A DNA stretch of 60,607 nucleotides, the filler included, from Platydemus manokwari (taxonomy: Eukaryota), in assembly GCA_037951405.1 (NCBI GenBank). It is 5 parts of 5 records of this genome, joined end to end, with 100 filler letters (N's around TTAATTAATTAA, not from the genome) between each part and the next. Parts side by side here need not be neighbours in the genome. Positions count along the whole stretch, not along the records: positions 23,758 to 35,288 come from JBBMOY010511109.1; 4 more parts are not named here. One strand, written 5' to 3'. The position numbers and the translations under genes are program-made. Shown one piece after another: positions 26,459 through 26,653 of the stretch (position 1 is the stretch's first letter; each line of letters begins with the position of its first letter). Under the pieces are notes generated by a model. That model had not been told where the DNA came from. It made no database searches and saw only the letters and a list, made by a program, of their open reading frames with translations.

Positions 26459-26653
26459 ATAGTGATTCGTATTGAGAAATCTGATGGTAGATGGTTGGAT
26501 AAGAATGTTCAAGTCTATTCCAAAGTGAAAGATATTAAAGCCGGAATAGAAAATGATCATACTTATTTAACGTTTATGAATTAAATTTTAAATGATGATG
26601 AATATTTAATGACATCTGAAATAACACCAAAAACGATTAACATTATTAAACAA
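26459..26653 (+). pseudogene. Element A ubiquitin-like domain
   Basis: IRIEKSDGRWLDKNVQVYSKVKDIKAGIE..YLTFMN*ILNDDEYLMTSEI aligns in register with ubiquitin [49 protein letters not shown]; no di-Gly. Confidence 0.7.

Follow-up and report, generated by a model that had tools for sequence, protein, structure and literature searches.

Planarian Burro (GYPSM1) elements are giant Gypsy-like LTR retrotransposons that encode one polyprotein (PMC6431247, Arkhipova and Yushenova 2019). According to the domain description in that paper, the polyprotein contains Gag knuckles, MATH, Ubi2/SUMO-like (PF11976) and Bcl-2-like domains, a mononegavirus-like Env in frame, a protease, a dUTPase-like domain and a reverse transcriptase (RT), so that a ubiquitin-like domain (UBL) in the Gag-Env interval of Burro has been published. 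Errantiviruses with the order GAG-ENV-POL and an HSV/gB-type Env are described from Nematoda, Bryozoa and Platyhelminthes (PMC13524379, eLife 2026), in a report whose main text does not contain the words 'ubiquitin', 'SUMO' or 'Burro'. The passages of PMC11410931 consulted give nothing on Burro domains.

The window analysed here is a stretch of 60,607 nucleotides, joined from five parts, of the genome of Platydemus manokwari (GCA_037951405.1). It is AT-rich, with 20-39% GC per 2 kb. On the plus strand, at about 25.7-29.9 kb, lies element A, a decayed Gag-Env-Pol, Burro-like retroelement, probably of the Ty3/gypsy group, of which this copy is dead. Its domains follow in the order knuckle, UBL1, helical domain, UBL2, Env and protease (Table 1), and the distance from knuckle to Env is about 540 codons. 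The three pieces of Env match PF24664 with E 3e-10, 8e-20 and 3e-11 and are collinear with the Env of related elements. The hydrophobic stretch where Env begins is likely, judging from its sequence, to be an internal signal sequence. The segment ahead of UBL1 may contain a degenerate first helical domain; the helical-domain profile is not significant on it, the scores being reached by 35 and 109 of 2000 shuffles. Neither the capsid part of Gag nor an LTR pair was detected in element A, and no RT or integrase was found after the protease, with family matches absent from 30 to 51 kb. The order Gag, gB-type Env and protease/Pol is present in element A and intact in the relatives, where RT, RNase H and integrase, all lost from element A, stand in that order. 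The 5' edge of element A, the place expected for the capsid region, is occupied by a repeat of very high copy number (25535-25721).

Table 1. Features of element A, with positions along the window
Feature	Position	Strand	Evidence
CCHC zinc knuckle remnant, nucleocapsid end of Gag	25796-25840	+	PF00098 E 0.011; translation
Second knuckle, more decayed	near 25890-25935	+	by eye
Decayed segment ahead of UBL1, in two frames	26112-26455	+	position only
UBL1, beta-grasp domain with in-frame stop	26459-26662	+	family profile, AlphaFold2, Foldseek, VIA-align
Helical domain, about 70 residues, between UBL1 and UBL2	26664-26861	+	identity to P0016/P0057
UBL2, second ubiquitin-like domain	26886-27089	+	family profile E 7e-14, 0/2000 shuffles
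Hydrophobic stretch at the start of Env	27396-27440	+	sequence by eye; position matches that in relatives
Env, chuvirus/gB-type fusion glycoprotein, with stops and frameshifts	27399-29226	+	PF24664, three pieces
Aspartic protease remnant	29623-29854	+	tblastn to P0012, E 1.6e-4

Comparison with the described systems places element A close to Burro in layout, as both have Gag knuckles, a ubiquitin-like domain, Env and protease in that order (PMC6431247), and the relatives of element A add Bcl-2-like and ankyrin domains and weak PF11976 matches to the likeness. The published Burro ORF is giant, about 4,900-5,100 amino acids with MATH, BIR and Bcl-2-like domains, whereas the polyproteins of the relatives have 2,100-4,060 amino acids with Bcl-2-like domains in some, and element A is compact and without Pfam matches to MATH, BIR or Bcl-2-like domains. 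Two UBLs and a helical domain are present in element A and go unmentioned in the Burro account, the comparison with Burro being by description only. Element A resembles a compact relative of Burro and falls outside Burro in the strict sense of giant size and MATH/BIR/Bcl-2 domains. Gene order and Env type (PF24664) are shared with the GAG-ENV-POL errantiviruses, but element A has lost RT and hence has no place on the errantivirus tree as presented in PMC13524379. Troyka elements, considered as the family of element A, were rejected since they are without an envelope in the available account (PMC12440569).

A word-based homolog search with an Env piece of element A gave no match; one metagenome locus, L001, was found with an Env piece of the element. 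Its open frame (3426 or more residues) has a UBL-like start followed by Env, three proteases, RT, RNase H and integrase. The Env of L001 led to 14 polyproteins of 2099-4057 residues, some of them incomplete, and 45 proteins came from a HMMER search that used the frame following UBL1. A family profile was built from the domains of 13 relatives, none of them taken from the window; these are 13 of the first 15 sequences, P0006 (which starts downstream) and P0015 (without the domain) being left out.

The first-pass annotation of this DNA had proposed an integral ubiquitin-like domain without a C-terminal Gly-Gly at 26459-26653 on the plus strand, between Gag and Env. Translation of these positions gives the peptide reported then plus two residues, and the proposal holds in each of its parts: there is no Gly-Gly in UBL1, the domain lies between knuckle and Env, and its integral nature is supported by the profile, the predicted fold and the retention in the single-frame polyproteins of intact relatives. 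All eleven residues named as identities with ubiquitin (G10, V17, K27, A28, I30, L43, F45, L50, D52, L56 and I61) are in register when compared by eye with ubiquitin 1-62. The alignment has a six-residue gap after helix 1, between I30 and L43, and since the relative P0057 has the same short loop this is a trait of the subfamily and not a sign of decay. UBL1 does differ from some columns kept in the relatives, as expected for a decayed copy. A stop interrupts it at codon 42 (26582-26584), another stop stands just upstream (26456-26458), and its end at about 26662 is taken from the last strand of the structure model (residues 61-67).

As a single sequence, UBL1 resembles ubiquitin no more than chance would allow. 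It has no ubiquitin-clan match in Pfam at E<=1, no chain in PDB at E<=10 and no homolog in a word-based search, and its score against UBL2 is reached by 378 of 2000 shuffles; none of the pairwise shuffle tests among the three window domains is significant. These empty searches are what a fortuitous resemblance in a decayed AT-rich frame would give, but significance arises through the relatives. The family profile matches 26456-26665 with E 2e-6 over profile positions 3-78, nearly its full length, and the score of 28.8 bits was reached by none of 2000 shuffles, which had a maximum of 13.1. When the window is scanned in six frames the profile is significant only at UBL1 and UBL2, the next match having E 1.4. 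P0057 is collinear with UBL1 and the following helical domain with a summed E of 7e-11, and UBL1 is orthologous to the first repeat in P0057 and P0026. With the profile matches in PDB, the AlphaFold2 model and the Foldseek result added, chance is refuted as an explanation and keeps only a negligible probability.

An alignment of 14 rows, A2, was used for the PDB profile search and, with UBL1 first, for AlphaFold2. In PDB it matched ISG15 (E 4e-6), single-domain NEDD8 (E 6e-5) and ubiquitin, and all 60 chains among the matches listed belong to the ubiquitin family. The Pfam comparison put forward in the first-pass annotation succeeds for members of A2, of which five of 14 match PF00240 (best 6e-6) and four of 14 match PF11976, but fails for UBL1 alone. 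A beta-grasp fold, likewise put forward then, is predicted by AlphaFold2 with A2 at pLDDT 90.2, in the order strand-strand-helix-strand-short helix-strand. The single-sequence model reaches pLDDT 51, so the confidence of the model is owed more to the family alignment than to the decayed sequence itself. With this model Foldseek places ubiquitin on top (TM 0.87-0.88, E about 1e-5), and VIA-align gives Z 11 and an rmsd of 1.1-1.3 over 64-65 residues at about 18-20% identity. By family profile and predicted fold, UBL1 belongs to the ubiquitin-like (beta-grasp) superfamily, sharing the fold with ubiquitin, NEDD8, ISG15 and the integral (type II) UBLs. Ubiquitin, ISG15, SUMO and the integral UBLs score equally in Z, so the comparison does not single out a donor. 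The best viral structure matches are ubiquitin-like domains of giant viruses and baculoviruses and the pestivirus inserts.

Two further domains were absent from the first-pass annotation, UBL2 and the helical domain of about 70 residues. UBL2 has 45% identity to P0016 and matches the L001 domain with E 4e-10; its neighbours in a language-model atlas are PARP and unnamed clusters, which conflicts with the result of the family profile. The helical domain sits in a different frame from UBL1, with a frameshift near 26650-26665, and ends at a stop. It has 53% identity to P0016 and 50% to P0057 and lines up with the domain found ahead of the UBL in relatives; a profile of more distant members is not significant on it. 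Each of the 11 modules in A2 has such a domain, about 70 residues long, ahead of its UBL at a fixed spacing. PDB profile searches and Pfam give no identification, a match to TFIIS N-terminal domains being among those absent; the likeness to these domains is presumed by eye.

The interval from zinc knuckle to Env is covered in 14 relatives and contains the UBL in 11 of them; by profile it is absent there from P0015, P0042 and P0046. Conservation, another point raised in the first-pass annotation, is therefore broad and incomplete. Ten of the 11 had contributed to the family profile and P0022 had not; further independent matches were obtained in P0016, P0024, P0026 (two), P0035, P0043, P0055, P0056 and P0057. 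P0026 has the tandem UBL-helical-UBL seen in element A. The profile finds a pair of UBLs in each of P0002 and P0003, and the second UBL of P0004 was recognised by eye. A tree of the UBLs, built without the domain of element B (see below), has long terminal branches and few starred ones, and with this weak tree support suggests that the duplication in element A was separate from that of P0002-P0004. The stretch from UBL to Env has Bcl-2-like matches in P0002 (E 0.0015) and P0022 (E 0.055); ankyrin domains occur in P0002 and P0004.

Several other features of the relatives were observed. P0013 has an extra UBL (2941-3019, E 8e-6) at the C-terminus of the polyprotein, after the integrase. AT-hook-like Gly-Arg-Pro motifs stand before Env in P0004, P0005, P0007, P0013, P0022 and P0055, and by eye also in P0002, P0010 and element B, hinting at a putative DNA-binding capacity of the segment before Env. 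The polyproteins of L001 (2-10282), P0005, P0007, P0008, P0010, P0012 and P0013 carry between two and four aspartic-protease-like domains, and some of these domains follow the integrase. In L001 a separate ORF after the polyprotein (10617-12107, plus strand) encodes an RNase T-family exonuclease (PF00929, E 1.4e-5). P0014, a polyprotein of this family, is filed under the name of a Flavobacteriaceae MAG and is probably a eukaryotic contamination of that bin.

Other contigs of the same sequencing run cover element A at 80-95% likeness. Three of them extend over 26582 and all three depart from the window sequence at the UBL1 stop, so this stop is private to the window copy. Over 26416-26513 no other copy aligns at 80%, and the other copies thus do not confirm the N-terminal third of UBL1. 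One contig jumps from 25959 to 26708 and thereby skips UBL1; this and the three relatives without a UBL indicate that the domain is dispensable in some lineages or copies.

The surface of the domain was compared in 28 sequences, 27 from relatives together with UBL2, one of which was picked by eye and one N-terminally truncated. Core columns are hydrophobic in 25-28 of the 28 domains. The equivalent of Ile44 is hydrophobic in six and those of positions 8 and 70 in 11 each, the column for position 8, part of a gapped hairpin, being less certain. Two of the domains have hydrophobic residues at 8 and 44 together. The Leu8-Ile44-Val70 patch reads Ser, Thr and Lys in UBL1. Gly-Gly at 75-76, which marks the conjugatable modifiers ubiquitin, NEDD8 and SUMO, is found in none of the 28 and is absent from UBL1; two of the 28, P0002 among them, have a GG near the domain end, at equivalents 73-74 and 78-79 and thus out of register. 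Compared with ubiquitin, NEDD8 and ISG15, the family is without Gly-Gly and without a conserved Ile44 patch, and the loop after helix 1 is shorter in UBL1. The face that is conserved, in ubiquitin-equivalent positions, consists of acidic 51-54 and 58, basic 27 and hydrophobic 42 and 55. Acidic residues occupy 51, 53 and 58 in 20, 17 and 21 of the domains, Asp is found at 52 in 21, Glu at 54 in 22 and Arg at 27 in 20. A hydrophobic residue stands at position 42 in 21 of the 28, and a shifted patch could therefore still bind ubiquitin receptors.

To the reading that the UBL of intact relatives would be a built-in, non-conjugated docking module, most likely for a host regulator, and not a ubiquitin mimic, we assign about an even chance from the sequence comparisons. 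As the domain is located before the putative signal sequence of Env, it would be cytosolic and, initially tethered to the membrane, would remain with the product on the Gag side. UBL and helical domain would act as one unit that docks through the face of acidic, basic and hydrophobic positions conserved in the family. The likeliest partner would be a host regulator, of the kind targeted by the Bcl-2-like and ankyrin domains located near the UBL or elsewhere in the polyproteins of relatives. The conserved surface may also only pack against the helical domain.

A purely structural role is rather unlikely. The module of helical domain and UBL would then be a folded spacer or matrix-like layer from nucleocapsid to membrane anchor, binding its own Gag, RNA or neighbouring modules and not host proteins. 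Its location between knuckle and Env signal, the fixed helical-UBL spacing and the tandem copies in element A, P0026 and P0002-P0004 fit such a layer, and by analogy the acidic face could bind the basic nucleocapsid; in coronaviruses the Ubl1 domain of nsp3 binds N. It is harder to reconcile with the three of 14 spanning relatives that lack the UBL and with the extra UBL of P0013, placed at the far C-terminus away from Gag.

Three roles had been put forward in the first-pass annotation: recruitment of ESCRT for budding, action as a proteasome or deubiquitinase (DUB) decoy, and guidance of polyprotein processing. ESCRT recruitment, decoy action and processing at Gly-Gly are unlikely because the Ile44 position is seldom hydrophobic and Gly-Gly at 75-76 occurs in none of the domains. 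Substitution for a late domain in recruiting ESCRT is improbable, despite a site after the nucleocapsid that fits, a position 42 that is often hydrophobic and classical late motifs that occur between knuckle and Env only in P0004 among the relatives listed. Engineered Gag-ubiquitin fusions likewise place a ubiquitin fold without Gly-Gly after Gag, and in the available part of that study they gave ESCRT-dependent release, but this release required L8 and I44 (PMC2958808), which the family does not conserve. A cleavage signal for host deubiquitinases, or a decoy, is more doubtful still. The UBL does lie inside a polyprotein, as do the ubiquitin inserts that serve as host deubiquitinase cleavage signals in pestiviruses, and P0002 has GG close to the domain end. 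However, 26 of the 28 domains have no GG nearby, which excludes such processing for most members, and the elements encode proteases of their own. Proteasome and DUB decoys mostly use the Ile44 patch or the tail, and both are missing here.

A bolder reading, which we hold to be speculative and unlikely, would make the module the mark of a widespread clade of Gag-Env-Pol retroelements. A two-part module that has gone undescribed, with a small helical bundle (TFIIS-N-like by eye) and a ubiquitin fold with a new acidic face, would have been duplicated independently at least twice and would engage a host pathway, be it chromatin or elongation factors or non-canonical budding, as no known retroelement does.

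A counterpart of the ubiquitin-like domain that was mentioned in passing for the giant Burro elements thus exists in a broader range of compact Gag-Env-Pol elements. The compact elements, the module of helical domain and UBL, its duplication and the lost patch are new here; in the main texts of the literature covered, no published description of the module, its duplication or the lost patch was found. Retained at about 25-45% identity, the UBL has probably been under selection for a long time. The missing Ile44 patch and tail narrow its possible roles, and as the module is small and soluble, with about 150 residues, a partner can be sought directly. The surprise is limited in that the window copy is dead and the general layout was already published.

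A second decayed element with Env before protease, element B, runs from 56493 to about 48000 on the minus strand. Its first ORF (54685-56493) begins with a ubiquitin-like stretch at about 56101-56379, which has ubiquitin-clan clusters as atlas neighbours at 0.84-0.89 and matches ISG15 with E 0.82. This N-terminal domain does not match the family profile of element A, 81 of 2000 shuffles reaching its score. The stretch is followed by Env, protease, a segment that looks dUTPase-like by eye, and integrase; RT/RNase H has been deleted at about 52385. A scan of viral contigs with this Env gave no match. Stray integrase and RT fragments resembling the same family lie at 56799-57192 (plus strand) and 1217-1408 (minus strand). 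Elsewhere the window contains a RING-finger gene (3378-4355, plus strand), a class C GPCR exon (8631-9833, minus strand), two long helical ORFs that match no Pfam family (40280-41404 and 42764-43948, both on the minus strand) and a tandem array of 13/26-bp units (37528-38323).
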